Of a stretch of 64,000 nt of DNA, positions 7,762 to 64,000 are shown piece after piece (within the stretch, counting starts at the first letter, position 1; each line of letters begins with the position of its first letter). A program made the position numbers and the translations under genes. Source of the stretch: a virus; IMG/VR virus record IMGVR_UViG_3300032053_000003, positions 94,392 to 158,391 of that record. The stretch is one strand, 5' to 3'. The notes beneath the pieces are model-generated. The model saw only the letters and a program-made list of their open reading frames with translations, had not been told where the DNA came from and ran no database searches.

Positions 7762-8322
7762 ATGGGAGTGATGGTGGATTGGCAAGCTACAGGTACCATT
7801 GTTACAGCTGTGGTAGCCTTGGTTGCATCTATTTGGCAGTATTTCGTAGTTATTTCAGGTGTAAGGAAAGATATTACTGATTTGGCTACTGGTGTAAGGA
7901 AAGATATTACTGATTTGGCTACTAACCTAAGAGTAGAGGCTGTTACTGCAAATAAAAGTGTGATGGAAACTCTGGCTATTCAAGGGAGTAAGATAACCAG
8001 GATAGAGACTCAAACTGAGTTATTTTGGAATGCTGTGAGTACTTCTATATCTAATCTGATTAAGCAACCGATTCATTTTAAAAAAGATCAGTTGATGGAT
8101 AAACTCATTCCTGTAAATATGCCTCATTTGCCAGAAAGTACTATTGAAGAGTTGGTGGAGTTGAGACTTATTCTCAAAGACGAGCTAGTAATGTTACAAG
8201 AAGTGAAAGACCCAAAAGCTTTAGCTTATGCCCTTGCTATAGCTTACATAGATCAAACTCTTTATGATAAGGGGCTTATAAAAGGAGAATGTCATGAGCC
8301 TGTTGTCTATGAGCCTGTCTAA
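7762..8322 (+). CDS. hypothetical membrane protein with a perfect 11-aa tandem repeat (GVRKDITDLAT x2)
   Basis: N-terminal TM helix. A 33-bp perfect tandem duplication at 7858-7923. Confidence 0.55.
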   Translation: MGVMVDWQATGTIVTAVVALVASIWQYFVVISGVRKDITDLATGVRKDITDLATNLRVEAVTANKSVMETLAIQGSKITRIETQTELFWNAVSTSISNLIKQPIHFKKDQLMDKLIPVNMPHLPESTIEELVELRLILKDELVMLQEVKDPKALAYALAIAYIDQTLYDKGLIKGECHEPVVYEPV

Positions 8323-9352
8323 TTCGTTATTACTAATATTTACTCTCCTTCTACAGGTTGTTATTGGTTTATATGGTTGGAAAATTTTGAAGATAGCCGA
8401 CTATATTGATATTTGGAGGAAGGGTTGGGCCTTTTTCATTATAGCAGCTGTAACGACTCTTCTGAGAAGAGTATGCGAGTTAGTGGGGTTAGGTGTTAAT
8501 AACTATACTCATATTATGTTATCTGTTGTCTCTACTGTATTTTTATTATTGTTTATCTATTGCATAGCTAAGGTATTTGTTAATATATCAAAGTTGCATG
8601 ATGAGAGTATATTTACCACTGTTCTTAAAGAGATTCCTATAGGTATTCTTATTCATGATTTGGACTCTTCCGTTGTGTACTCTAACCCCATGGCTTCAAA
8701 GATTCTTGGTACTACAGAATCTTTATCTGGACTCTTTACCAGTAAACAGTGGCATTTTTTAAGAGAGGACTCAACACCTCTTCCTGAAGATGAATATCCA
8801 GTAAATAGGATTATTAAGTCAGGTAAAGCATTTTCTAATATGGTCATTGGTATCAATCATCGTAAGAGTACACTGTGGGTGCTGTGCAATGCTTATTTTA
8901 TAAATGAAAAGAACCAGGTTGTTACTGTATTTGCTGATGTAAGCTACCTTAAAAGAATGGAGGGAGAGTTAGGGCTGTCTGAAGAAAAGTACAGGAGAGC
9001 TTTTATGTCCAGCCACGATGGAATTATCATCAGTAGGATGTCAGATGGTCTGGTTAACTCCATTAATAAAACTTTTACTATCCTTACTGGTTATACAGAA
9101 GAGGAGATCAAGGGCAAGACTACTATTGATCTTGGTATCTGGAAAAACATTGAGGATCGTAATAAGGTTGTTTCTGACCTTCAGAGTGGTAATGGGGTTA
9201 TGGACTTTGATTGCTATTTTGTCCGTAAGGATGGGAAAGATTTACATGGGCTAGTATCTGCTTCAACATTAATTCTTAATCAAGAACTTTATATCCTTAC
9301 ATCTGTAAGAATTGTGCAAGAGAGACTTAATAATCAAAGAATAGGGGATTAA
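8294..9352 (+). CDS. membrane-anchored PAS-domain protein (about 3 TM helices, two PAS-like domains, no output domain)
   Basis: Hydrophobic N-terminus. PAS-like blocks (…DGIIISRMSDGLVNSINKTFTILTGYTEEEIKGKT…DFDCYFVRKDGKDLHG…). Confidence 0.55.
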   Translation: MSLLSMSLSNSLLLIFTLLLQVVIGLYGWKILKIADYIDIWRKGWAFFIIAAVTTLLRRVCELVGLGVNNYTHIMLSVVSTVFLLLFIYCIAKVFVNISKLHDESIFTTVLKEIPIGILIHDLDSSVVYSNPMASKILGTTESLSGLFTSKQWHFLREDSTPLPEDEYPVNRIIKSGKAFSNMVIGINHRKSTLWVLCNAYFINEKNQVVTVFADVSYLKRMEGELGLSEEKYRRAFMSSHDGIIISRMSDGLVNSINKTFTILTGYTEEEIKGKTTIDLGIWKNIEDRNKVVSDLQSGNGVMDFDCYFVRKDGKDLHGLVSASTLILNQELYILTSVRIVQERLNNQRIGD

Positions 9353-15284: not shown

Positions 15285-16709
15285 ATGGATATGAATGAGA
15301 AGATGCTTCTTGAGAAGTATCAGAAAAAGACAGACAGACTGTATGAAAAGTACAAGGGTGCTATTGACAACGTGTCTCGTGCCTTTTTGTCCAGGCAGGG
15401 TCGTTCCATGAACCAGTTCGATGTGTACGCTCTCGGTAAAATGCTTGAGAACTACAACTCTTACATCAGGATGATCCCTGAGACCGTTTCCCAGAACTAC
15501 TTGGGTAGGGTGCTGCCCACTGCAATGGACATCATTGCATCGTCCTATGTGACATCAATCATGCCAGCCATTTCATCGGTTCAGCCGATGGACGAACTTG
15601 TGGGGGTCATCTTCTACAAGACGAACTACGTGGATAATGGCAGTGGCCCTCAGCAGACCTTCGATCCGTTTGGTAAGAGAAACTGGGGTTCTGACCAGTT
15701 TGCATCCGATTTCGTTCAGGATGAGCTGCTCGGTACTCTGGCTGCTGGATCTGGTTCAATCTATCTGGATTGCACTGGGGTCCTTGCCAAACACGGTTGC
15801 CGTAAAGGTACCCTGATTGTTAAGATCATGCATGGCACAAACCTGCTGGTCACTGGTGTTTCTGACAGTGATGGCAATGTGTATGGTCCCAATGGTCTGA
15901 CAGGCTCCTACAACCCCGATACAGGCAATATAACGGTAGAGCTGCTTCATGAGGAAGTAGTTGGTGCTCAGGTTGGGGACCGTGTGCTCTGCACATACAA
16001 CTTCGACTTTGAAGCCAATATTACCAACATCCCGAAGTCCACGTTCCGGTTCACGGACAAGACCGTCAGGGCTCGTATCTACATGCTTGAAGGTCAGTGG
16101 GGTCTCATCACTGAGTACACCTTGCAGAAAAGGTTCGGAAGGGCAATGGATGTTGAAGTTGCCAATGACCTCCGTGCTGAATTGAATGCAGAGGTGGCCT
16201 CAGCTGCTATTTCCACCATCTACCAGAACCTGGTGGGTGAGGTAACGTACCCCAAGAATCCTACCCCTGGCACATCAGCCTATGAGCATCGTATGATGTT
16301 CCGTGATGTTCTCAACAACACCACCAACAAGATCATTGCCAATGTGGGCAAAGGCCGTGTGAGTTACATCATTGCTGGTGGTAACCTGTTCACCATCTTG
16401 GCATCCCAGCCTGGGTTCAAGTTCTTTGAGACTGGCTCCGAGATTGGTCCTCATGTTGCTGGTCAGCTGGATGATATCACCATCATCCGTGCAGTAAGTG
16501 ATAACCTCGTTCCTACTGATGAGGGTATTGCTGGTTACCGTGGTGCCAACTGGTTTGAGTCAGGTGTCGTGTACGCTCCGTACCTGCCTCTCTTCATCAC
16601 TGGTACCGTCCAGATCGGGTCTGCCTTCCAGCAAGCTATGGGTGCTGCTCATGCTGCTGCAATCGAGATGGTTGTTCCTGCCTTCACGACCAAGATCAGG
16701 CTCACGTAA
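15285..16709 (+). CDS. major capsid protein
   Basis: 474 aa. Position after protease/scaffold. Followed by a strong hairpin terminator. Confidence 0.55.
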   Translation: MDMNEKMLLEKYQKKTDRLYEKYKGAIDNVSRAFLSRQGRSMNQFDVYALGKMLENYNSYIRMIPETVSQNYLGRVLPTAMDIIASSYVTSIMPAISSVQPMDELVGVIFYKTNYVDNGSGPQQTFDPFGKRNWGSDQFASDFVQDELLGTLAAGSGSIYLDCTGVLAKHGCRKGTLIVKIMHGTNLLVTGVSDSDGNVYGPNGLTGSYNPDTGNITVELLHEEVVGAQVGDRVLCTYNFDFEANITNIPKSTFRFTDKTVRARIYMLEGQWGLITEYTLQKRFGRAMDVEVANDLRAELNAEVASAAISTIYQNLVGEVTYPKNPTPGTSAYEHRMMFRDVLNNTTNKIIANVGKGRVSYIIAGGNLFTILASQPGFKFFETGSEIGPHVAGQLDDITIIRAVSDNLVPTDEGIAGYRGANWFESGVVYAPYLPLFITGTVQIGSAFQQAMGAAHAAAIEMVVPAFTTKIRLT

Positions 16710-53500: not shown

Positions 53501-54474
53501 TTACACTTAAAAATATAACCACTGGCTCGGTAGCAGTTAATGGTTACAACCTTAATGTGGGTTATCAACCAAGACTGTTTTTTGATGGTGATGAGACAAG
53601 TTCTACCTACGGTCAAATCACTATGTTATTTCTAGTTAATGGTAAAATCTTTAAACGTGATTGGATGATAACCAATTATACTCCTGGTACAGCTCCAGCA
53701 ATTGCTCCTCAGCTTCTTGATGGTGCTATAGATGTTACTCGTACTCTCCCAAATAAGATTGACATAATGGATGAGGCTCAGAGACCTTTTAAGCCAACCT
53801 CTGTATCCATATACCCTGGTTCTATTTGTAATGAGTTTGGTCAATTAAACCCTGGTGATTTTGATTATGTTGTAGAATTTACTGTACCAAGTAATCATAC
53901 CTATTTTGAGAACTCCAAAACGTATAAGATTTATATTCGTAATGGTATTTTTGATGCAGCTTATACTGATCCTTTGGCTGGTTATCTTCCAGCAACTGAT
54001 CTTGGTTGTGATATTACCAATACTCAAGAATCAAAACTAGCTCCATGGTTGCCTGATATGGTCAATGAATTTGTAGAGACTACACCAGTACATGCTACAT
54101 TTAAGCCTGGTATTAAGATGGTTGTGAGTCGGCAAACTTTTGGAGAGCTTCAATCACTAATGGGTTGTGTGACCTCTGATGGTGCTGCTCCTTATTGGAC
54201 TATCTCTACCATGCTCTATAAAAAATCGATCTATGCACCTGAGGAAAATTATTTTGGAGTAATGGGCTGTGTAGTTCCTTATGGTTGTGCTCCTTATTGG
54301 ACTATCTCTACCATGCTTTACAAGAAGTCTATTTATGCACCTGAAGAGAGTTTTGGGGCAATGGGAGATAGGTCAATTGAAGGTATTGAAGGTACCTCAG
54401 AATGGTCTAACAGTGATTTCTATGGTGGTCAATACTGGCTAACCTATAATTATTACTCAGAGAGGGTAAGATAA
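50524..54474 (+). CDS. giant fibre protein (1316 aa) with a LamG/concanavalin-A-like lectin domain and a C-terminal 34-aa tandem repeat
   Basis: …LTLEFWIRPTNISYNRQNIIDK…TWYHIAIVRNYTTHSVRCYV…VEVRFWN… is typical of Laminin_G_3. Repeat APYWTISTMLYKKSIYAPEE x2. Confidence 0.55.
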   Translation: MAYIPPEGDNVVLDLTGTYSPPDGDTIVLDLQSNPFIADNLEVEWDTDLWDPAPTSVFLTTPRFRATFRDLSALSGIAATGVEIVVTDLSDLTIVWASGLMDFAAMDAAGHPILDPGVHYLYPDEICAVRYNHNGTAVSPGVLLRDAESYSIVFKYWVGVLPSATAVTSFTMASAIAAIDPEMTITYVIGSELDPPPGHMIDGTWSAVSPLANVRPMKPWFRAKYYSSIAAVSGAPDEYLVTGVWVQVRYAAPPYNVVWDSGVLDFTDWDNPPYDKPILPDHGHVLRSGETCEIVYQHDAVSGLMSLPRDGNSYTWRMLFFCKHEGIYSEWSPDFEFSQFEETWEATSLLCEGLTNPIGVTDLNPEFDATFLASYTEFYTPKIISYQLQVSDVVNFATVRWDTGEIFEAHTPDPYASLLTIEYPLTDLRRTGLTLYWRVKLKIDTEWLPFGMELDWFAVQNWTFFEEIWSASNIRTNGLTTPTALKDYYPEFTAQFNNNYAPARATDVQFQVINTVPSEYYIRCANYDSTDIVTIGNVAPLRIIGDLTLEFWIRPTNISYNRQNIIDKCYGGEYTLTLETNGSLNYFHGTSGSEAAPYIARLWNLGLVNGTWYHIAIVRNYTTHSVRCYVATGHGTHVDWGEGAGAAWINPVVSTGLVRLGRGYTGFSYNGDLVEVRFWNTVRTIAQLNTYYRLRLLGSETGLVGYYKLEETTGNAIDSSLSECHGIVTGVSRLLSTLLFINPLGSSTVKWDSGWIELTPHLEPGQSCPTVYYPQPYPDDDEGFYYDQTQFIIQARYKLITEYEDITSYAVDHFTMGKANVSALYPRVDYVHGTLRVRGPFPGFDAQYDSDAYNALYPVEDPREYVTFVHIQVSTSSTVWTSLVWETTGDGYWAELDPHFLSIPLTYSDMKRMGNGEPPYLLAYDTVYYWRIQFKNERGVEGDWSEVMQFTYVGTVLSVVSDTDIINCFYRNEIDDLEEWEMYAETISGSIFFTLKNITTGSVAVNGYNLNVGYQPRLFFDGDETSSTYGQITMLFLVNGKIFKRDWMITNYTPGTAPAIAPQLLDGAIDVTRTLPNKIDIMDEAQRPFKPTSVSIYPGSICNEFGQLNPGDFDYVVEFTVPSNHTYFENSKTYKIYIRNGIFDAAYTDPLAGYLPATDLGCDITNTQESKLAPWLPDMVNEFVETTPVHATFKPGIKMVVSRQTFGELQSLMGCVTSDGAAPYWTISTMLYKKSIYAPEENYFGVMGCVVPYGCAPYWTISTMLYKKSIYAPEESFGAMGDRSIEGIEGTSEWSNSDFYGGQYWLTYNYYSERVR

Positions 54475-57400
54475 TGAATATTGAAGGATTTGTTGAAATA
54501 GAAGCTAGAGACTCTATAACAGGTGAGTTAAAAGACTCTAGGAGTAGACATAATCTTATATTTGATAGCCTTAGGATGATCCTGTTTTTTAATCATTATG
54601 CTGCTGGTAGCTATCCTAGAATTTTACTTGAAAACGTGTACCTTTATCTTTCTGAAACTGCTGGGCCTATAACTCAATCATTTTCTCCTGTGCAATATGC
54701 TCAACAAGGACCTTATTCTGGTACCTATACATACCCAATTGACAGAAGACAAGTATTGATCACTTATCCTACGATTGTAATATCTGCTACCTCTCCAACA
54801 AGAACATTAAGATGTGTGGGTTTAAGAGATGCAAGTTATTACTCTGCATGCCCAATAGATCCTCCTATTATTCATGATTCTGCTACAACTTTATATATAC
54901 ATTATTATGTAAGAATCACCCTTTCTGCTGATGATAATCTGTTTGGGTATGAAACACTGATTAGAGATCCATATGCTGCAAAATATTACTATGGAGGAGG
55001 TTATGTTGGTTATAGTGATGGGTACTCCTACACTGTTGCTATGCCTAATTATAAGAAACATTTCTATGTTTCACCTTTGAACAGAAGATTGATCCCTGCT
55101 GATGGCTCTGCTGGTGGTGGAGGAAGCTATTTCTTGTTCTCTGCTGCGGTTCTATCCTCTACAGATGACTCAAGCAATTATGTAATGAAGGGGTATGTGG
55201 CTATCCCTCAATGGTGGGCAGGTCCTTATGGAGGTTCTTACGAATGTGGAAGAAATAGTGGACTAGGTGCTGGTTGTATTTATGATCCCCATATTAGTAG
55301 GGTATTTGCTCATAAAGCTTCAGTATCCACTAAAATATTTTATGATTCTACAGAAGCTGATGTCCCAGAATCAGAAGGTACACTGAGTACTGATGTGACA
55401 GGGTGTGTTTATCAGCCTAACCCCCTGGTATTAGACCCTCCTTATAACCCTGATGGGTTGAAGTATCCATCGGTTTTCCGAATGCTTTTTACTGCCACAG
55501 GAGATGTGACCACTGCAACATATAATATTCAAGAGTATGTAATGCCAGAGACTAATTATTTTCCATATCCTGGAGGATGTCTCGATTCATTAAATTACTA
55601 TAATTATAATTACAGTATACAAGTTACTCTTAAGCACATGTATGTCTCTAAGAATAGGGAGTGGGGAACTTATTGTTCTACTGCATGTAGTCCTGGTTAT
55701 GGTCTTCAATTACAAGATAAACCATATGTGTTTGTTATCAATAATGGTCTTAGTAGACCTTATTTGGGTTTTAATTTTTACCCTCCTGCTTACATTCATT
55801 ATTGTATCGATAATTATGGTTATTTATACCATACAAGATCTACTGGTGTTACCACTTTAGTTCACTCTGTAGATATGAACAGTCTGGAGCCTACACCTCC
55901 TTTTGCATTGGAATTTGATTTATCAGTGGTGTGCTCTGGTCATGGTATCACTAATATTACAGGTCTTACTTTTGATGATGATAATGATTGGTTGTGGGTA
56001 GCTACCAATGTTGGATTTGTAAAGGTCGATTATGCAGCTTCTGGTGGAACTACATATACCTTCTATAACCATGATACTGTTAATTTTGGTTTATATATGT
56101 CGGTAGTTGCTCAATGTACTATTTATGATCCATGGAATGGTAGGTTTCAAGCTGAGGGTGGGACACTGACTTGGGTACAGAGTAATGATCCTAGTATTGT
56201 ATGGCACTGGACTGGTGGAGTTGCTGATGCGAGGAGTATTGATGTACCTAATTATAGCGGTTCAATAGGAATTTCAAACCTATTTGTTGATTTAACCCTT
56301 GCACTTAGTGCTGGTGATCTTGGTGTTATAGGTGTTGTAAGGAATGGTGTCCCTGCTGATGGGTTTACTATTTCTGGAGGTACCACTCCAGCAAGTGGTC
56401 CAGCTTATCCAGCTTTTATAAGAATTCCGTCATTAATAAGTAGTCCAAGTACTCTTGTTGTTACCAATCAGAGCACACGTAATATAGCTAGTGGCTATGG
56501 TTATAGCTGTGCAATGGAATTAGGCCAATTCTGGTATATGGTGTCCAGTAATGGAGGTACTGCTTATAAAGGCCGTATTGATATTGTGGGGGCAACAGGG
56601 GTGCCCTTTACTGATTATTATATGGTTCCTTATATGATATACAATCAGACTGTTTCAGGATCTACCATATGGAGTGGTAACTCCATGTTTGCATCACCAA
56701 ATAGATCCTTTGTAGAGGGTGTATGTACTATTATGGGTACTACTGGGAGTAATGCTTACTGGACTCAGATAGTGCTGTATGTGGATAATGGACCTATTTA
56801 TTGGGGTTGGGATGGGGCTAACTGGGTAAAAAGTCTTGCTAATCAACCTTCAAAAACAACTCATTTTGCAATGGAACCTATTCCTCGTGGTGTACTGGTT
56901 GGATTCAATGACGGTGGATTAGGTGATTCTTATAGGTTATATGATTATTACTCTTTTGGTGTTAATCCTAAAGGGATATATATTGATAATCTTCAAACAA
57001 GCATAGTGGATATTGCTATGTATGGGTACCATGCAGAGGTAGTTACCAGGAATATAACAGTACCTGTTGGGAGTATTTATTCTATTCCTGAGCAATCATC
57101 CACTGTAACTGAAAGTAAAACTGTTATGAGAGGTTGGACTGCTGCAGGGTCAGATTATGTTCATGATGCCATTACTAGTGTGTCCTCTGTTGTACAAGGG
57201 GGTACTACTTATATTGCTGGAGTTGATTATAACCTGGTCAGCAGTGCTTGTATAGACTGGCTTGGAGTAGCAGAACCTGCTGCAGGTACCTCTTATACTG
57301 TCAACTATACATTCAATAACTTCATAAATATGGTTGCCTGGATGTGTGACTCTCACCCCAAAGTTAAATTCCTTGATTATTCTGGTGATCCTTTAGGTAC

Positions 57401-57713
57401 AGTAATCAGTGTATGTCCTACTTGGGTAACAGGAAAAACATATTCAGCAGGACAATATGTTACATTGAGTGGTTACAATTATTTTTGTATTCTATCAAAT
57501 GCTTCTATTCAACCTGGTGTTACCGCAGGGTGGGCTACTTACTGGACTCAGACAAGCCTGACAGTAGGTCAGGTGGTTGGAGGCCCTCCTGATGGTCATG
57601 ATATAACCAAAGAGGTCAGATACGATTATGCAGGTACTATAACCTTCTATCCTGGTCATGAAGGTGAGACAGTAGAAGTACGTTATGCTTGGTTGTCAAG
57701 GACTGTAGTGTAA
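54474..57713 (+). CDS. giant tail fibre/spike protein (1079 aa)
   Basis: TAATG overlap with the previous gene. N-terminal domain paralogous to the 57713 protein. Contains one VDY..IDW..AEP..G.SYTVNYTF repeat. Confidence 0.55.
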   Translation: MNIEGFVEIEARDSITGELKDSRSRHNLIFDSLRMILFFNHYAAGSYPRILLENVYLYLSETAGPITQSFSPVQYAQQGPYSGTYTYPIDRRQVLITYPTIVISATSPTRTLRCVGLRDASYYSACPIDPPIIHDSATTLYIHYYVRITLSADDNLFGYETLIRDPYAAKYYYGGGYVGYSDGYSYTVAMPNYKKHFYVSPLNRRLIPADGSAGGGGSYFLFSAAVLSSTDDSSNYVMKGYVAIPQWWAGPYGGSYECGRNSGLGAGCIYDPHISRVFAHKASVSTKIFYDSTEADVPESEGTLSTDVTGCVYQPNPLVLDPPYNPDGLKYPSVFRMLFTATGDVTTATYNIQEYVMPETNYFPYPGGCLDSLNYYNYNYSIQVTLKHMYVSKNREWGTYCSTACSPGYGLQLQDKPYVFVINNGLSRPYLGFNFYPPAYIHYCIDNYGYLYHTRSTGVTTLVHSVDMNSLEPTPPFALEFDLSVVCSGHGITNITGLTFDDDNDWLWVATNVGFVKVDYAASGGTTYTFYNHDTVNFGLYMSVVAQCTIYDPWNGRFQAEGGTLTWVQSNDPSIVWHWTGGVADARSIDVPNYSGSIGISNLFVDLTLALSAGDLGVIGVVRNGVPADGFTISGGTTPASGPAYPAFIRIPSLISSPSTLVVTNQSTRNIASGYGYSCAMELGQFWYMVSSNGGTAYKGRIDIVGATGVPFTDYYMVPYMIYNQTVSGSTIWSGNSMFASPNRSFVEGVCTIMGTTGSNAYWTQIVLYVDNGPIYWGWDGANWVKSLANQPSKTTHFAMEPIPRGVLVGFNDGGLGDSYRLYDYYSFGVNPKGIYIDNLQTSIVDIAMYGYHAEVVTRNITVPVGSIYSIPEQSSTVTESKTVMRGWTAAGSDYVHDAITSVSSVVQGGTTYIAGVDYNLVSSACIDWLGVAEPAAGTSYTVNYTFNNFINMVAWMCDSHPKVKFLDYSGDPLGTVISVCPTWVTGKTYSAGQYVTLSGYNYFCILSNASIQPGVTAGWATYWTQTSLTVGQVVGGPPDGHDITKEVRYDYAGTITFYPGHEGETVEVRYAWLSRTVV

Positions 57714-60697
57714 TGAAAGTAATAGGTCTGGTTGAAGTACATGCTCATGATGAACATGGCAATTTACTTGCTGTGAGCAGGGGTCGTAACATCATGTTTG
57801 ATAATGCAAGGGTTGCCATGTTGTTGAATCCTTGCATTGCAGATAGTACATCTGATTTTATTATGTACTTCTCTGAGTTTAAGGAGAGGCTGATAGAAAC
57901 ATTTTATTATTGGGATTCTTCCTTGATGACTTATTATTTAACATCCACCATCACAGTGACCTCTGAGGATCTTACCCCTTATACCAAGATGTATCAGTTT
58001 GTAAGCCAATCTCTCCTTCCTGGAGGGGCTGCTAAGGTATTAAGGGTTGTGGGACTGAGAAGTGTATCCATGGGCATCTATGCCTCTGCTGTGACAATGG
58101 ATATACCTGTAAACCATGGGGTCTCTACTTATATTACTGGTTATTATAAATTCATTATGGGGTTTAATGAAGAGAGTGAGCTTTATGATAATGTGTACAA
58201 TTGGACTGGTCGTACTTGGTCTATTGTAGGATCTTATAATTATAAGAAGGGATTTTATGTACAGGATAACTCTTCATTTGATCTAGTAAGTAGTGCAACA
58301 ATAGCTTCTTTGATAGCTCGTACTCAGAGTGCTTATGATACCATGGCTGTAAATACTGGGTTAAACTCAGTAAATTTATTTGGTGCTAAAGAAAAAGATG
58401 GGAATACGTCTGTTGCTTTGTTAGTGAATAATGTAATTGGAAAGAATCCTGCCACCAGATCCAGGACCTTCTTACATCCTGCAACATCAACAAGCTTATA
58501 TGCTAATCTGGCAGATGCAATACCTACATCGGAGGGAAGCATAAGGATAGATGGTATAGATGAATTTGATTACAATACTGCTGTTTGTATTAATATAACA
58601 AAGTCTGGGGATATAGGTACCTCTGAATACGATGTAACTTTGCTACCAATTGCACATACTCTTAGTTCCAGAGGTATTGCTATTGCAAGAAGACAGGTCA
58701 ACTTCTTTTATCTTTCTGGGAGTGGCAATACTACTTATTACCAGTACTATATTTACTTTTCAGAAAATAGAGAATGGGCTGTTCATTATAGTCCCTCTGG
58801 TGTTTTTAGCATTTGGTATAAAGGACTTTATAGAACCTACCCTGTAGGAACCCCTGTTTGGTATCCTGGTGTAATCAGCAATGAAGGTGTGTTCTTTTAT
58901 GTTAAGACAGCCTCTAATACTACTCTGAGAAGATATGATAATGAGAAAATTTACGAAAAAGGGTATGTAGAGGAGACTCAGGTTCTTCCTGTTCCCCAGA
59001 TCCGTGCGTACCAGGTAGATGATACTGACTCCAAAGTAATTACCCTTTCTTATACTACCCCAACAACAATAGTTACCAATGGTACTTTTGATAGTAATGT
59101 TAGTGGCTGGAGCATGGATAACCCCTCTTATTGTTATACTACTTGGGTTAGTGGGGCCATGAGGGTTGATTGTAATTATTACCCTGCTGTTCATACCTAT
59201 GGAGTTTGGCAGGATCTGACTACTGTTATTGGGAGGAGGTATTACCTCAGTATAACAGCAACAGCTTGCACTGCTGGAGCATACGGTTGTTATATTCAGA
59301 TAAATGGAGCTACTGTACTCACTTTCAATGCACTCGGTACCTTAACTTACTCCTGGGTAGCAACCTCCACCACCACAAGGCTCAAAATCCTTCCTTTCTA
59401 TTCGGTTACTTATTATTGGACTTTTGATAATATATCAGTAATCCATACTGAAGGTACAAACGGTACCATAGCCAAGGTTAATATCGATGACATGACCTCT
59501 TACACCACTTACAATAGAACTCATCCTAATTTTTCAGCTCTTACTGCTGATTCCATGATTTTTGCAACAGCCAATGATAGATGGTATTGGAAGGTGGATA
59601 AGGGTAAGATGGTGTGGTTAGGCACCTACTCTGCTGCTAAGAAGCTTCATTATTGGGATGGCACTAATACAGTATCTACTTTTGATGAGACTATATCAGG
59701 CACTATTTATGATGTGTGTGTTACTGATGACTTTAAGAAGATTTGCTATGTAGTCCAGAATACTGGCACCCCAACTTATTGTACTTGGGTTGTAAGAAGC
59801 CTTGAAGATGGGACAAGATGGAATTTGCTTTACAGTGTGGCTAGGACCATTCCTGTTAATACTGGCTACTATGGTACTTACACATACCCAGGATGTTTTG
59901 TTTCAGGTAATTACATGTATCAGCTCAGTGCTTCTGCCAGCTGGGGTTATAGGACTGATCTTGTTACTTATACAGATATTTCATATCCAACTTATGCAGG
60001 GGCCTCTGATCTTGAGTCAAGTATTACTCATTTGAGAACTATACCTCTGCCCAATAGATCGGTGATTTCTGGAACACTCATGTATGGTTTTAATAGTACA
60101 GGATATAAGTGGCCTGGGTATCCAAATTACACCTGGCTCTTTCTTGATATGACACCTCTCAATTTTGGATGGAATGGATCTGCATGGGTTCCTAATCATA
60201 CTGGTAATAAGATAACTCATAGGGATGCCCAGGCTCTGCCTTTGTATGGTTCAGTAGCCTTTGGGAAGGAACCTCCTGATGATCCATCTACTGAGGATTA
60301 TATCATAGGGGAGTACTTTACCTTCTCTGTAAATCCTAGTGGTTATGTGTTTGACAATTCCATGGCCTACACATCCACTCCGTGGGTGTATGCAGGAGTT
60401 CCTCAATATGTTGAAGGGGAGGTTCTTAATCTATATTGGCCTAATCCTTCTTTGGAAGAAAACATAGAGAGAGTCTTGGAAAAGGTGGAACATCCTGATT
60501 GGCTCTGTGTAGAGATTGCTAATATTGAGGTTGTCTTTGATGATGCTGTGACAGGTAGACAGGTAAGCTCTATCTCTTACCTGTCCTATTATGGTGAGTA
60601 TCATATAAATGCTGCAACAGGTAAGATGACTTTCTATAAGAGTTGCAATGGTCACAGTGTTACTGTAAATTACTACTGGATTAGAAGAGATGTATAG
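57713..60697 (+). CDS. giant tail fibre/spike protein (994 aa) with a CBM4_9-like carbohydrate-binding module
   Basis: TAATG overlap with the previous gene. The N-terminus (MKVIGLVEVHAHDEHGNLLAVSRGRN…) is paralogous to 54474. CBM-like region …NGTFDSNVSGWSMDN…. Confidence 0.55.
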   Translation: MKVIGLVEVHAHDEHGNLLAVSRGRNIMFDNARVAMLLNPCIADSTSDFIMYFSEFKERLIETFYYWDSSLMTYYLTSTITVTSEDLTPYTKMYQFVSQSLLPGGAAKVLRVVGLRSVSMGIYASAVTMDIPVNHGVSTYITGYYKFIMGFNEESELYDNVYNWTGRTWSIVGSYNYKKGFYVQDNSSFDLVSSATIASLIARTQSAYDTMAVNTGLNSVNLFGAKEKDGNTSVALLVNNVIGKNPATRSRTFLHPATSTSLYANLADAIPTSEGSIRIDGIDEFDYNTAVCINITKSGDIGTSEYDVTLLPIAHTLSSRGIAIARRQVNFFYLSGSGNTTYYQYYIYFSENREWAVHYSPSGVFSIWYKGLYRTYPVGTPVWYPGVISNEGVFFYVKTASNTTLRRYDNEKIYEKGYVEETQVLPVPQIRAYQVDDTDSKVITLSYTTPTTIVTNGTFDSNVSGWSMDNPSYCYTTWVSGAMRVDCNYYPAVHTYGVWQDLTTVIGRRYYLSITATACTAGAYGCYIQINGATVLTFNALGTLTYSWVATSTTTRLKILPFYSVTYYWTFDNISVIHTEGTNGTIAKVNIDDMTSYTTYNRTHPNFSALTADSMIFATANDRWYWKVDKGKMVWLGTYSAAKKLHYWDGTNTVSTFDETISGTIYDVCVTDDFKKICYVVQNTGTPTYCTWVVRSLEDGTRWNLLYSVARTIPVNTGYYGTYTYPGCFVSGNYMYQLSASASWGYRTDLVTYTDISYPTYAGASDLESSITHLRTIPLPNRSVISGTLMYGFNSTGYKWPGYPNYTWLFLDMTPLNFGWNGSAWVPNHTGNKITHRDAQALPLYGSVAFGKEPPDDPSTEDYIIGEYFTFSVNPSGYVFDNSMAYTSTPWVYAGVPQYVEGEVLNLYWPNPSLEENIERVLEKVEHPDWLCVEIANIEVVFDDAVTGRQVSSISYLSYYGEYHINAATGKMTFYKSCNGHSVTVNYYWIRRDV

Positions 60698-60718: not shown

Positions 60719-61840
60719 ATGCAATTACATGAGGCTACTAAAAATAAACTTTCTCAATGTGATAGAATTGTTTATCTACATGTAGACCATTTTGAACCTT
60801 CCAGTACAAGTAATTTTGAAAAAGTGGATCTCATACTTAAACGTATGATTTCAGATATAAAGATGGGATTCTTTAGGCCGAGTCTCTTTTTTAAAATTAC
60901 TGCTGGTATGAAGTGGAAGGACAATGCACCTCTCTTCAGTCCTACAAGTCAACATAATATGGTCATGTCTCATGTTAAAACACTAGCACATTTAGGGTAT
61001 GATATTCATTTACATATTCATCATGAACGATGGACCCGCTCAGAGCTTACCAATCATGACTGGAAAGAGACCTTTAAGAAAGAGTCCATTACAGACAGTG
61101 AGCTTTTTGAGCTTTTTGTTAAAGGGTCAATGGAGGAGTTCAGAAAGTATGGACTACCCATAAGGGACTGGGGATTTGTACATGGACGTTGGGCCTTGAA
61201 TGCTTCTGATCCTCTGTCCTGTAACATCACTGATGAGATAGAGATCCTAAGAAGGAATGGTTGTGTGGCTGATTTTACTATGCCAGCAGGTAGATCTCAG
61301 TGTACCCCCTCTATGAAGGGTATATTTGTAATCAAACCACAGGATAAACCTAAGTGTTATAATACAGGTGGTATGATTGATAGAGGGACTCATTTGTTGG
61401 ATGATCCAAATGCTTTTATTATTTGTTATCCATCTTCAAATTATATGTATGTCTCTCTTGATAATCTTATACTAAGAGTTGGAACAAGGTCAGATACCCT
61501 TTTTCGTAGTCTTATTGCTAAAGATAATAGTTGGGCACCTGAAGATCCTAAGGTGATTATTCAGGAGTGGATACTATGCTCACATATCTTAGATCGTACC
61601 CTTGTAATTAAGACCCATTCACATAATATGAGACTTTCATTTTGGGATGATAAAACAACTGGAAGTTTAATCAATAACTCCCCTATTTTTAGCTCCAGGC
61701 AAAAAGAACGTATGTATTTATTACAGGAGATCTGTAAGGACAATAATTTGGAAGATCTAAAGCAGGTTACGGCAAGAGAGCTTATAAAATTTGTAAGATG
61801 GGTCGATGGTGGGAAGGAGTCAAGGAATTATGCCTGGTAA
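60719..61840 (+). CDS. His-rich putative metal-dependent enzyme (373 aa)
   Basis: GGAGAC SD. Motifs HVDHFEP, HLHIHHERW, FVHGRWALN. Confidence 0.45.
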   Translation: MQLHEATKNKLSQCDRIVYLHVDHFEPSSTSNFEKVDLILKRMISDIKMGFFRPSLFFKITAGMKWKDNAPLFSPTSQHNMVMSHVKTLAHLGYDIHLHIHHERWTRSELTNHDWKETFKKESITDSELFELFVKGSMEEFRKYGLPIRDWGFVHGRWALNASDPLSCNITDEIEILRRNGCVADFTMPAGRSQCTPSMKGIFVIKPQDKPKCYNTGGMIDRGTHLLDDPNAFIICYPSSNYMYVSLDNLILRVGTRSDTLFRSLIAKDNSWAPEDPKVIIQEWILCSHILDRTLVIKTHSHNMRLSFWDDKTTGSLINNSPIFSSRQKERMYLLQEICKDNNLEDLKQVTARELIKFVRWVDGGKESRNYAW

Positions 61841-62627
61841 AGTATTTGGAAATACTGTCAGGGATTACTGCCCTGTGTGTGATGGTAAGAATATTACCAA
61901 TGTCTGGAAGATACCTATGACCAAGATAGATACACCCTTGATGATTAATGGGGCTAAGTTCTCTCGTGTACCTTTATTGAACTCTGAGATTGTATACCAC
62001 TTCAGTGAGTGTAAAGATTGTGAATCTGTCTTTCTTAGTCCATATTCAGGTAACTATTGGGATGATCGTATAGTTACTCACCATGCAGAAAAGGCAAGGA
62101 AGAGGTCTGAATGGAGTAGCTATGAAGAACGTATTGGGGACCTTCAATCATTTCTGAGTAAGGGTATGGATATAGTAGTAGATGTAGCCTCTGGTGGAGG
62201 ACAGTGTTTAACCATATTGAAGGAGAGGGGTTACTCAATTTCTAGGATGATAGGTTTAGACATCATGCAACCCAGTGTTGATTATATTAAGTCATTGGGT
62301 TTTGAAGGATACCGTCATGATGTCTGTATGTCCATGAGCATGATAGATGATAACAGTGTTGACCTGATGATGTTCTATGAGGCATTTGAGCATGTTCGTA
62401 CACCTTATCTGGCTATTAAGAATATTTCACATAAGATGAAGGTAGGAGGGCTACTGGCTTTAACATCACAGAGCATAGAGGGAGGTCTTCCTGTAAGACC
62501 TGAGGAGTCAATATATACTAACTACTCAGGATTGGAAAAGTTGCTAAATAATAATAATTTGGAGGTGGTAACAAAAAAGAACACCAGTGGTAGGTGGAGA
62601 GTAATAGCGAGGAAAAAAATGGACTAA
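61830..62627 (+). CDS. SAM-dependent methyltransferase with an N-terminal zinc-ribbon (C-methyltransferase-like architecture)
   Basis: CPVCDG…CKDCES zinc ribbon. Motif I VVDVASGGGQ. ATG 61830 follows an AAGGAG SD. The track's 61806 start is also possible. Confidence 0.6.
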   Translation: MPGKVFGNTVRDYCPVCDGKNITNVWKIPMTKIDTPLMINGAKFSRVPLLNSEIVYHFSECKDCESVFLSPYSGNYWDDRIVTHHAEKARKRSEWSSYEERIGDLQSFLSKGMDIVVDVASGGGQCLTILKERGYSISRMIGLDIMQPSVDYIKSLGFEGYRHDVCMSMSMIDDNSVDLMMFYEAFEHVRTPYLAIKNISHKMKVGGLLALTSQSIEGGLPVRPEESIYTNYSGLEKLLNNNNLEVVTKKNTSGRWRVIARKKMD

Positions 62628-62667
62628 ATGTGTGGAGAGGTTAATAAATAATTTAGAGAGGTAAGGG

Positions 62668-63270
62668 ATGGATAGTATACTAAGTCTTAATTGGAACAAC
62701 CCAAAAGCTCCAAATAAGTTTCGTGACAACATTACTAAGTTTTGGTCTGCTGATAAGGTTGTCAACTTTGAAAAATTCATAGACCGTAAAAGATACCAGC
62801 AATCTATAATGTCAGTTATTCAAAGATTCTTACCTGAGATTAAAAATGGTGGGCATAGTATTCTTGATATGTCTTGTGGTTCAGGGATGTTCTTAGAGCT
62901 TTCTAGAGCTTATGATAATGAGATATTAGGATCTAATGAACCTATTCCATGTGTTTATGCACCTCTTTTGAAGAGTCAAAAAATTCCTTTTGTATTAGTG
63001 GATGGTAATATTTTACCTTATCCATTTGAAGATAGGTCATTTGATATTGTAACTCTTATGAATGCTATCTGGTTTTTTCCAGAGGATTTATGGGTGCCAA
63101 TTGTTATTGAACTATTTCGTATCTCTCGTAAAACAGTCTTTATAATTACTTCTACAGAAGATAAATATGCAAAAGGTAGCGAGAAAATAGATAAAATAAT
63201 CTTACCTCATGGGTGGGAAAAAACTGATACCAGTCATATTAATTATATCAGGTGGGAGTATAGGGGATAG
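62668..63270 (+). CDS. SAM-dependent methyltransferase
   Basis: Motif I ILDMSCGSGMF. Rossmann-fold spacing. Confidence 0.5.
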   Translation: MDSILSLNWNNPKAPNKFRDNITKFWSADKVVNFEKFIDRKRYQQSIMSVIQRFLPEIKNGGHSILDMSCGSGMFLELSRAYDNEILGSNEPIPCVYAPLLKSQKIPFVLVDGNILPYPFEDRSFDIVTLMNAIWFFPEDLWVPIVIELFRISRKTVFIITSTEDKYAKGSEKIDKIILPHGWEKTDTSHINYIRWEYRG

Positions 63271-63272
63271 AT

Positions 63273-63851
63273 ATGGATCTTGTTGAGCTGAATGAAAAGA
63301 TGCTTGTAGTGGGTAAGGATCTTTTAGCTAAAAAAGGTGAGACGGATGGAGGTCTCTATAATTTTTATAAGATCCGTATTGATAAAGGACAAATGCTATC
63401 CAAGTATGATGTTTTTGTTCTTGGATTTGTAAATGAGAGATACCCTAAGACTTGTAGTATTCTTGAACCTGCATCGGGTATAGGTACAGTTAGCCATGCT
63501 CTATCTCTTATGGGGTTTGAAGATGTTACTTCATGTGAGTATGATCTTCGTAGGAATGTAGCCAATAAGATGCTTGGTGAGTGTCTCAATTCAAAAGCTA
63601 AAGTGATCAGTGATACCTTCCCTTCACCATCTTTGCTTGATTTTGATTTGATTATTTTGACCAATGCACAATCCTCCCTTAACAAGTATGAGGACCTGAT
63701 GGACTTTATAGAGACTACCAGGGCAGATGTCATAATGATGCCCAGATTGTGGGAGGTTACTGTTGACTATGAACAAGGCTATAACTTACTTTGTGAGGCA
63801 GGGATATCTTTTACAGAAATTGGTTTTGAAATGGTGTATATTAAGAAGTAG
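63273..63851 (+). CDS. SAM-dependent methyltransferase-like protein
   Basis: Motif I-like ILEPASGIGTV. Acidic residue after beta2 (SCEYD). Confidence 0.4.
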   Translation: MDLVELNEKMLVVGKDLLAKKGETDGGLYNFYKIRIDKGQMLSKYDVFVLGFVNERYPKTCSILEPASGIGTVSHALSLMGFEDVTSCEYDLRRNVANKMLGECLNSKAKVISDTFPSPSLLDFDLIILTNAQSSLNKYEDLMDFIETTRADVIMMPRLWEVTVDYEQGYNLLCEAGISFTEIGFEMVYIKK

Positions 63852-63888: not shown

Positions 63889-64000
63889 ATGAGTATTGAG
63901 CTTAATAGACTTATTGTAACTAGTCTATTTCCATCAGGTACAACTCTGTTCCCTATTGTTAAGATTGAAGATCTACTGAAGCCGAAAACTGATCCAAGTG
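63889..64000 (+). CDS. 5' fragment of a hypothetical gene (MSIELNRLIVTSLFPSG…)
   Basis: ATG 63889 with an upstream GAGG. Open to the window edge. Confidence 0.4.
   Translation, partial: MSIELNRLIVTSLFPSGTTLFPIVKIEDLLKPKTDPS

Follow-up and report, generated by a model that had tools for sequence, protein, structure and literature searches.

Glycosylation of virions by enzymes of the virus itself has been established in chloroviruses and in a small number of actinobacteriophages; in phages at large it has barely been explored. In the actinobacteriophages (cluster O, cluster F; Corndog, Che8), two reports describe operons whose glycosyltransferase (GT) and methyltransferase genes decorate capsid or tail in the host cytoplasm (PMC11600133, PMC12619734), e.g., an O-methyltransferase and three GTs that modify capsid and tail tube in cluster O mycobacteriophages (PMC11600133, citing Freeman 2023). 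In chlorovirus PBCV-1, the GT-GT-methyltransferase protein A064R acts on capsid N-glycans (PMC7826918), and glycoproteins have been detected in virions of the jumbo phage XacN1 (PMC5852040). Here we analyze a cassette of four tightly packed, co-directional open reading frames (ORFs), A, B, C and D, at positions 60719–63851 (+ strand) of a 64,000-nucleotide stretch of the IMG/VR virus record IMGVR_UViG_3300032053_000003, hereafter the window, directly 3′ of very large structural genes. We consider it probable that this cassette is directed at carbohydrates, and we give even odds to the fuller reading that it is a cytoplasmic island for building or tailoring glycans, with a virion protein as the most likely acceptor.

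The kind of system is already known, and it is the enzyme set A-B-D that differs: a deacetylase-clan barrel, a zinc-ribbon methyltransferase and a divergent methyltransferase, which together define a three-part enzyme that is widely distributed and linked by gene fusions. As in the actinobacteriophage operons, the methyltransferase genes here adjoin a GT1/GT4 gene and the cassette lies within the virion gene block. Unlike those operons, the locus, from a jumbo myovirus, further encodes an enzyme of the deacetylase clan, four methyltransferases, and proteins resembling transglutaminase and MptE. A tblastn search of 50,697 deposited phage genomes, actinobacteriophages included, returned no match for A, B or D, and the DNA of the four genes had no nucleotide match there either. 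The cassette has the GT and methyltransferase genes within a structural block that mark a virion glycosylation operon, but no homology to the enzymes of the known operons. Glycans on the capsid, tail or fibres of this phage are predicted.

Other described systems share single traits with the locus. A064R resembles the A-D-B fusions described below in being a cytoplasmic, multi-activity glycan builder of a virus that ends in sugar O-methylation and joins its activities in one polypeptide; it differs in coming from a eukaryotic virus, in its unrelated domains, in lacking a deacetylase-clan domain, and in that its acceptor and product are established. The heparan sulfate N-deacetylase/N-sulfotransferase (NDST) is bifunctional, first deacetylating and then modifying the freed amine. 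A-D-B would carry a SAM (S-adenosylmethionine) methyltransferase-like domain in place of the sulfotransferase, with either an N- or an O-methyl acceptor, and NDST and A-D-B are not homologous over their whole length. Soluble cytoplasmic Maf and FlmG enzymes O-glycosylate flagellin before assembly (10.1101/2020.06.03.131540; PMC7591256), and there are two points of likeness: PF01973, which the MptE-like protein of our operon matches weakly, is the Maf catalytic domain, and TPR-GT-B proteins, as in FlmG, flank a bacterial A-D-B fusion. Unlike in these systems, the PF01973 match here is sub-threshold, no nonulosonic-acid synthesis genes were seen in the operon, and no flagellin N-terminal signature lies within 8 kb of any of 83 A loci (79 bacterial or archaeal, four viral). 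Finally, jumbo-phage and cyanophage clusters for “LPS/capsule modification” (LPS, lipopolysaccharide) hold several GTs, O-methyltransferases and sugar-nucleotide enzymes; they are read as host-envelope systems, and neither adjacency to fibre or capsid genes nor the A-B-D triad is described there (PMC7824862; PMC12801897).

A, B and D form one conserved unit in phages and bacteria

A, B and D are a conserved functional unit, in which D is an obligate partner of A. D adjoins A in the phage loci L006, L009, L010 and L092–L095, as established by alignment A3 for L006 and L009 and by hhalign (97.6%) for L010, even though the A proteins of these three loci are only 48%, 38% and 33% identical to A of the window, respectively. 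D-like proteins adjoin A in all four IMG/VR viral contigs recovered, and B-like proteins with the same Cys4 ribbon accompany A and D in related phage loci. An exhaustive profile search defined a D family of 141 cluster representatives; in 21 of them the polypeptide includes an A domain as well, and both domain orders occur. Conversely, the alignment of A includes two fusions of A with a methyltransferase (P0020 and P0021), and the C-terminal domains of both match the D profile (hhalign probability, 93–95%).

This association extends well beyond phages. Across 83 further A loci, i.e., 79 from bacteria or archaea (one genome per species scanned) and the four IMG/VR viral contigs, A and D are fused in 29, D lies within 3 kb of A in 9 more, and B lies within 5 kb in 12. 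Single A-D-B ORFs occur in Reyranella soli and in several alphaproteobacterial metagenome-assembled genomes. In the Reyranella soli fusion (strain NBRC 108950, L013:7971-10793; 940 amino acids (aa)), A spans 43–406, D 478–634 and B 712–975, with the CPVC...CSGC pair of the ribbon retained, and phage B is homologous to the C-terminal domain of such fusions (E ~1e-65). Cultured bacterial carriers of the family exist (Reyranella soli, Niveispirillum, Sphingomonas, the last as Sphingomonas sp. ID0503). A distant A subgroup from Acidobacteriota, Verrucomicrobiota, Planctomycetota and Thalassotalea mostly occurs without D and B. An earlier note on this DNA, made from the sequence alone, had argued from three different methyltransferases in a row for a multi-step pathway, and this is well supported because A, B and D are conserved together and fused into one bacterial polypeptide.

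In nine loci (L026, L028, L031, L036, L038, L044, L045, L050 and L051), two or three paralogous A-containing genes stand side by side, often on both strands. Such paralogous A genes at many alphaproteobacterial loci suggest a local expansion of the enzyme family.

Predicted activities of the cassette proteins

A was modelled confidently as a barrel of the CE4/GH57/GH38 clan, with the distorted (β/α)7 fold of the NodB homology domain. Comparison of this model with known folds gave figures of ~14 for GH57 enzymes, 13.6 for Agd3, 13.2 for ArnD and ~12 for GH38, while sequence identity to the CE4 deacetylases and allied barrels (HP0310/PgdA, chitin deacetylases, Agd3 and ArnD; GH57 and GH38) is only ~10%. 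PDB sequence searches with A alone and with an A-family profile returned no match, i.e., A has no solved relative by sequence, and a Foldseek search of BFVD gave at best a marginal viral match (E 4.5e-4, TM 0.32). Eight of 22 A-family members weakly match DUF2334 (PF10096; best E 7.7e-6) and A itself does not at E ≤ 1, so A would be a distant sister group of DUF2334 rather than a member; a literature search on DUF2334 found no informative papers. Overall, A is a new, distant branch of the deacetylase/glycosidase clan.

Five motifs define canonical CE4 enzymes: TFDD, H(S/T)xxH, RxPY, DxxD(W/Y) and LxH. In the A family they are replaced by HxDHFEP, HxHHE, FVHGxWALNxSD and KTHxH (alignment A1, 22 homologues), the KTHSH of A being presumably comparable in position to LxH. 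Residues D23, H24, E26, H99, H101, H102, H155, D164, D185, K298 and H302 are invariant among the 22 homologues, and, with alignment A1 placed on the model, the invariant His, Asp and Glu residues map at or just past the C-terminal ends of the barrel strands, a placement that appears as expected for a metal-dependent active site. We propose that A is a sugar de-N/O-acylase, and a metal-dependent deacetylase activity is predicted from its model. Two remarks of the earlier note on A were partly right: the protein is only moderately “His-rich” overall (4.3% His), but its His residues are invariant and clustered, and a guess at NodB agrees with the fold clan of the model but not with canonical CE4 membership, since both Polysacc_deac_1 and the CE4 motifs are missing.

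B is a class I methyltransferase with an N-terminal zinc ribbon, in which C14, C17, C61 and C64 are invariant across four phage lineages. Its match to Methyltransf_11 (E 4e-9, 37.4 bits) lies above the curated Pfam cutoff of 21.2 and, as C also exceeds this threshold, the methyltransferase motifs reported for both proteins passed profile validation. B most likely starts at 61830, a position that is preceded by a Shine-Dalgarno sequence (ggaaggag), agrees with the start of its homologues and was chosen in the public gene call, rather than at another in-frame ATG at 61806. Among solved structures, B comes closest to generic class I methyltransferases only, and the weak NCBIfam and PDB neighbours of B and C are methyltransferases acting on small molecules or natural products. 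The proposed likeness of B to sugar C-methyltransferases holds for the Cys4 ribbon only, as their defining Pfam domains are absent. Enzymes of the TcaB9/TylC3 type combine a Methyltransf_13 zinc domain with a C-terminal Methyltransf_14 domain. A TcaB9-type NDP-hexose C-methyltransferase was rejected for B: PF08421 and PF08484 are absent at E ≤ 1, and B cannot hold the third (C-terminal) domain of that architecture because it has only 265 aa.

Judged from its family, D belongs to the class I methyltransferase superfamily, in which it is divergent. A profile of its 26 closest standalone relatives matches class I SAM methyltransferases in the PDB across motifs I–IV (3sm3, E 1.6e-5; 1ve3, 1.2e-4; TehB, 3.7e-4; range 1.6e-5 to 8.5e-4), with generic class I enzymes as the closest solved matches, as for B; in a wider D set, 10 of 87 members match Methyltransf_23. 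Motif I, an acidic residue followed by GxGxG, is present in B (VVDVASGGG, 62175–62201), C (ILDMSCGSG, 62860–62886) and D (ILEPASGIG, 63459–63485), and Y32, E65, G69, L77, R94 and N131 are invariant in D. Hence, of the three consecutive methyltransferases claimed earlier, B and C stand by direct Pfam match, whereas D fails direct profile search and qualifies only through its family profile; SAM binding and methyl transfer are predicted for all three. An antisense ORF of 122 aa (63365–63733, − strand) lies wholly within gene D, is without support and is probably spurious.

C stands apart from this unit. It is 32% identical to the fourth methyltransferase of the operon (L001:16604-17158), of which it is a paralogue, and it matches LahSB in the PDB (E 6.7e-5). 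Outside this phage group C lies beside A at a few loci only, and among the 50,697 deposited phage genomes it has one weak match, to a methyltransferase of a Mesorhizobium phage. C is an accessory, lineage-specific addition outside the conserved A-B-D core.

Glycan genes accompany the unit at related loci

In every related phage locus examined, GT genes stand beside the triad (one to seven per locus), and these loci also carry genes for a UDP-sugar dehydrogenase, an epimerase, a DegT aminotransferase and a pyruvyl transferase. Two of them place the cassette right after fibre genes: L096, which keeps the gene order of the source phage, with the MptE-like gene fused to a methyltransferase, and L006, which includes a 742-aa GT, an extra methyltransferase and an MptE-like gene. 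Two others place it by the capsid gene. In L009 the cassette begins one small gene after the major capsid gene and encodes a 931-aa GT9+GT2+GT1 protein, a radical SAM protein, more GTs and a methyltransferase; in L097 the order is major capsid gene, a 119-aa gene, the MptE-like gene, then A, B and D. In L010 and in a contig of 318 kb, A is preceded by five to seven GT1 genes and followed by methyltransferase, UDP-sugar dehydrogenase and epimerase genes, with a pyruvyl transferase in the 318-kb contig only, which also encodes a DegT aminotransferase and an ATP-grasp-methyltransferase fusion. A large protein upstream of the L010 cassette showed no tie to known fibres.

The bacterial fusions have comparable neighbours. 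GT2 genes surround the marine fusion P0020, together with genes for an NTP-transferase, GlmS and UDP-glucose dehydrogenase; the Reyranella fusion is flanked by two TPR-GT4 proteins on one side and an AsnB-like amidotransferase on the other, with an ABC-2 transporter in the vicinity; and an A-D-D fusion of Niveispirillum neighbours a GT2+GT1 protein, UDP-glucose dehydrogenase, an epimerase and an AsnB-like gene. Glycan context is frequent but not universal: at L007 (P0021) the A-D fusion has a kdp operon for potassium transport on one side and an ECF sigma factor on the other, and sugar genes are absent from its surroundings.

Two details recur among these neighbours. The gene right after the fused A-D(-B) gene encodes an AsnB-like amidotransferase in the two loci examined from cultured genera, Reyranella (L013:10798-12744) and Niveispirillum (L040:10521-12491), and UDP-sugar dehydrogenases recur in the Niveispirillum and phage loci. 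Together, these two kinds of neighbour hint at uronamide-type sugars in the same pathway.

Proposed function and alternative explanations

Among the roles offered in the earlier note, i.e., hypermodification of DNA, modification of a glycan on the virion or host surface, or synthesis of a small molecule, a glycan role is favoured because the fold of A belongs to a clan of carbohydrate deacetylases and glycosidases, GTs co-occur with the triad in this operon and in every related phage locus examined, and bacterial homologues lie in polysaccharide loci. The acceptor is a more tentative matter: virion proteins, i.e., fibres here and capsid in other lineages, are the leading candidates at somewhat less than even odds, because in unrelated lineages the module forms part of a structural operon, following either the fibre or the capsid genes, and because its enzymes are soluble and come with no flippase, polymerase or Gtr-type protein.

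In the pathway that we propose, a GT1/GT4 glycosyltransferase, possibly together with the weakly matching Maf/MptE-like protein, would assemble sugars from host nucleotide-sugars onto the acceptor in the cytoplasm. A would remove an acyl group, most plausibly N-acetyl, from a sugar residue, and B, C, D and the fourth methyltransferase would move methyl groups from SAM onto sugar hydroxyls and/or the freed amine, with A, B and D acting as one unit. The outcome would be a methylated glycan coat on the virion, akin to those of mycobacteriophages and chloroviruses. We infer this chemistry (deacylation, then methylation), the order of its steps and the acceptor alike. More specifically, A, D and B, as separate subunits in phages and as one polypeptide in Alphaproteobacteria, may constitute an uncharacterised glycan-editing enzyme that de-N-acetylates an amino sugar and then methylates the amine and/or neighbouring hydroxyls, in analogy to NDST with methyl in place of sulfate. 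With it and with GTs of their own, uncultured phages, jumbo and smaller ones alike, would give their fibres or capsids a coat of methylated and in part cationic glycans, by which adsorption would be altered or the virion shielded; in this full form the idea is speculative and unlikely to hold in every part.

Several observations weigh against a glycan-tailoring cassette that serves the virion. Functions of the A, B and D families are predicted from sequences and models. A has no Pfam match at E ≤ 1, including to Polysacc_deac_1, the canonical TFDD, H(S/T)xxH and RxPY motifs are absent, and its Foldseek matches in the PDB are marginal (best a chitin deacetylase, E 1.5e-3, TM 0.44). Because of these missing motifs and Pfam matches and the weak Foldseek similarity, A could instead be a glycosidase or transglycosylase (GH57/GH38-like) or a binding module. 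D alone matches nothing in Pfam, NCBIfam or the PDB and is placed at the family level only, the last (third) Gly of motif I is degenerate (Ala) in many of its relatives, and an AlphaFold2 model built from four sequences was unusable (pLDDT, the predicted local distance difference test score, of 45.7). The MptE/Maf-like match is sub-threshold and covers only profile positions 94–166 of PF01973, and a PDB profile search with that protein gave no match. Moreover, the ABC-2 exporter beside bacterial homologues points to polysaccharide rather than protein, position in an operon is circumstantial, and partners for DNA modification may lie elsewhere in the genome, of which the analysis covered ~85 of ~230 kb.

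The exporter leads to the main rival, a serious alternative although a rather unlikely one, in which soluble enzymes remodel host-surface polysaccharide by editing undecaprenyl-linked O-antigen, capsule or extracellular polysaccharide intermediates at the cytoplasmic face. This could happen, e.g., in a pathway that depends on an ABC transporter and completes the whole chain within the cell; the polymer would be altered or capped through deacetylation, methylation and added sugars; the phage would benefit from a receptor masked against superinfection, or from progeny virions kept off debris. Methyltransferases such as WbdD are known to cap chains in ABC-dependent O-antigen pathways, and the bacterial A-D-B fusions do lie in polysaccharide loci, with TPR-GT4 proteins, AsnB-like proteins, UDP-glucose dehydrogenase and an ABC-2 (Wzm-like) transporter. 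A survey of jumbo phages likewise reads clusters of GTs and O-methyltransferases as capsule or LPS modification (PMC7824862). Yet the module sits within the virion structural block in several unrelated lineages, even right after the capsid gene, which is not the usual place of a seroconversion module; the part of the contig that was read showed no lysogeny genes; and there is no membrane-embedded transferase, flippase or Gtr-like protein, although none of these points is decisive. A further, improbable alternative dispenses with a surface acceptor altogether: a free, soluble and polymethylated glycan would be made in the cytoplasm by the GT4 protein, several methyltransferases and A, the last acting as a GH57-like hydrolase or transglycosylase. 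The product would resemble the methylglucose lipopolysaccharides (MGLP) and methylmannose polysaccharides (MMP) of mycobacteria, or would be a sugar-derived small molecule or secondary metabolite. A is indeed nearly as similar to GH57 as to the deacetylases, but GH57 enzymes catalyse with a Glu/Asp pair, and the conserved His cluster of A instead resembles a metal site. MGLP offers a precedent for such a product (PMC4555173), but there is no sequence homology to MGLP or MMP enzymes, acyltransferase, carrier and export genes are lacking, and a position within the structural module would be hard to explain.

We regard the two remaining explanations as very improbable. For DNA or nucleotide hypermodification, the GT would glycosylate a modified base while A–D tailor the DNA-linked glycan or methylate bases, as an anti-restriction measure. 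Phage GTs do decorate 5-hydroxymethylcytosine DNA with diverse glycans (10.1101/2023.12.21.572611), and D weakly matches models named for DNA methyltransferases (phrog_1600, E 3e-4; PADLOC mad2, 1.2e-4), but over the generic SAM-binding region only, and the PADLOC scan as a whole returned only weak generic methyltransferase matches. Against this, the Pfam models N6_Mtase, N6_N4_Mtase, MethyltransfD12 and DNA_methylase have no match in A–D at E ≤ 1, the (D/N/S)PP(Y/F), PCQ and ENV motifs and a target-recognition domain are absent from A, B, C and D, and the methyltransferases are short (192–265 aa) and, apart from the zinc ribbon of B, single-domain. A scan of the operon and of ten non-structural window proteins, eight of which have no Pfam family, likewise revealed neither TET nor a hydroxymethylase nor any further base-modifying gene, and the neighbours of homologues are sugar-nucleotide and polysaccharide genes, not replication genes. 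Lacking a DNA-methyltransferase profile, motif IV and a target-recognition domain, the hypermodification option is not supported, and an ordinary DNA methyltransferase or anti-restriction module was rejected on the same motifs, profiles and domain. Direct protein methylation would have B, C and D methylate side chains of the fibres, with A and the transglutaminase-like protein processing them and no glycan involved. The genes adjoin fibre genes, some distant D-family members weakly match lysine or carnosine N-methyltransferase models, and mycobacteriophage adsorption reportedly requires a host enzyme to methylate a tail protein of the phage (PMC13445384). However, this would leave unexplained the association with GT and sugar-nucleotide genes, the carbohydrate-clan fold of A, and the polysaccharide loci of the bacterial fusions.

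The locus suggests that elaborate cassettes for glycan tailoring form part of the structural operons of environmental phages, a jumbo myovirus among them. If the acceptor is a fibre or capsid protein, the cassette would matter for receptor recognition, for the evasion of immunity and defence, and for phage engineering; with the host envelope as acceptor, a lytic phage would have a route to receptor masking. In both cases, the A-D-B fusion would be an entry point to new sugar-modification chemistry.

Genomic setting and the complete operon

The window ends before the operon does. We read the downstream part from locus L001, whose 13,282-nucleotide overlap with the window shows 100% identity, and found that the operon overruns the window end by ~3.6 kb: A–D are the first part of a late operon of 11 genes and ~7.5 kb (Table 1), after whose last gene, the 75-aa ORF, the strand switches. 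The four genes lie on the + strand where the earlier note had placed them, as the ORF list bears out, and a coordinate check found every motif it had quoted from A, B, C and D in its place; the four genes it described are real, but the operon does not stop there, with seven more genes past the window end. Promoter- and terminator-like sites occur in the operon at chance frequency only, which, together with the short intergenic gaps, is consistent with co-transcription of the cassette with the fibre genes.

Table 1 Features of the cassette, its operon and the adjoining fibre-like genes (positions in the window unless given for locus L001)
Feature	Position	Strand	Basis or remarks
Two large fibre-like structural proteins, 1079 aa and ~994 aa	54474..60697	+	Co-directional, immediately 5′ of A; candidate acceptors
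Gene A, 373 aa, predicted soluble (β/α)7-barrel with putative metal site, CE4/GH57/GH38 clan	60719..61840	+	Structural model
A motif HVDHFEP, end of barrel strand 1 and residues just after	60779..60799	+	D23, H24, E26 invariant (alignment A1)
A motif HLHIHHERW, candidate metal ligands	61007..61033	+	H99, H101, H102 invariant, E103 nearly
A motif FVHGRWALNASD	61175..61210	+	F153, H155, G156, W158, L160, D164 invariant (alignment A1)
A motif KTHSH, end of last long strand and just after	61610..61624	+	K298, H302 invariant, H300 nearly
Gene B, 265 aa, N-terminal Cys4 zinc ribbon, then class I SAM domain	61830..62627	+	Pfam Methyltransf_11
B zinc-ribbon region (CPVC 61869-61880, CKDC 62010-62021)	61869..62021	+	
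Gene C, 200-aa class I SAM methyltransferase	62668..63270	+	Methyltransf_11 E 9.4e-6, 26.6 bits vs 21.2
Gene D, 192-aa divergent class I methyltransferase-like protein	63273..63851	+	
Transglutaminase-core (Cys-protease-fold) protein, 238 aa	Starts 63889, runs off window at 64000	+	Transglut_core 7e-13
89-aa ORF, then 84-aa hydrophobic ORF, next in operon	Beyond window end (L001)		
214-aa MptE/Maf_flag10-like protein	L001:14420-15064		PF01973 E 1.2e-5, 25.5 bits, below gathering cutoff 34.6
508-aa GT1/GT4 glycosyltransferase, 3′ part of operon	L001		Pfam Glyco_trans_1_4 1e-10
184-aa fourth methyltransferase, then 75-aa ORF	L001:16604-17158 (methyltransferase); operon up to L001:17457		Methyltransf_23/11 ~1e-6

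None of the operon enzymes has a hydrophobic segment, and no flippase, polymerase or Gtr-type membrane protein is encoded in the operon. The MptE-like gene is conserved in L006, L096 and L097. The fused form in the close relative L096 (L096:14112-15299, 395 aa) joins the MptE-like protein to a Methyltransf_23 domain and so ties it to methylation. The sole hydrophobic protein of the operon is the 84-aa ORF (L001:14169-14423, equivalent to window positions 64887-65141), with a Kyte-Doolittle 19-residue maximum of 1.90 and apparently two membrane segments; it may serve as a membrane anchor of the pathway or have nothing to do with it.

The identical sequence is present on metagenomic contigs of 230,776 (ENA ERZ27247916 k141_351042) and ~237,000 bp, and because of this we assign the source to a jumbo phage, i.e., an uncultured jumbo myovirus of ~230 kb. 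Upstream of the cassette, PHROG and Pfam scans identified a prohead protease, a major capsid protein (gene at 15285–16709), tail sheath and baseplate proteins, and a series of five to six giant proteins that resemble fibres and carry DUF4815, Laminin_G_3 and CBM_5_12 domains; this block is, to judge by these matches, the late structural module of a myovirus, and the position of the cassette downstream of fibre genes, as first noted, was borne out. The major capsid protein is closest, at 32% identity, to those of Rhizobium jumbo phages among deposited phages.

DUF4815 occurs in both the 1576-aa and the 1079-aa protein, and CBM_5_12 in two proteins (Pfam). The two fibre-like genes immediately 5′ of A, at 54474–57713 and 57713–60697, encode proteins with 18–20% Ser plus Thr and 9% Tyr, which may be the glycan acceptors. 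Their N-termini are alike by eye (MNIEGFVEIEARD... and MKVIGLVEVHAHD..., respectively), and the two proteins look like paralogues. Upstream of the head genes, at 8294–9352 (+ strand), the window further encodes a tandem-PAS protein of 352 aa (PAS_9, E 4e-14; PAS, E 2.5e-11), a PAS-type sensor domain being unusual for a phage.

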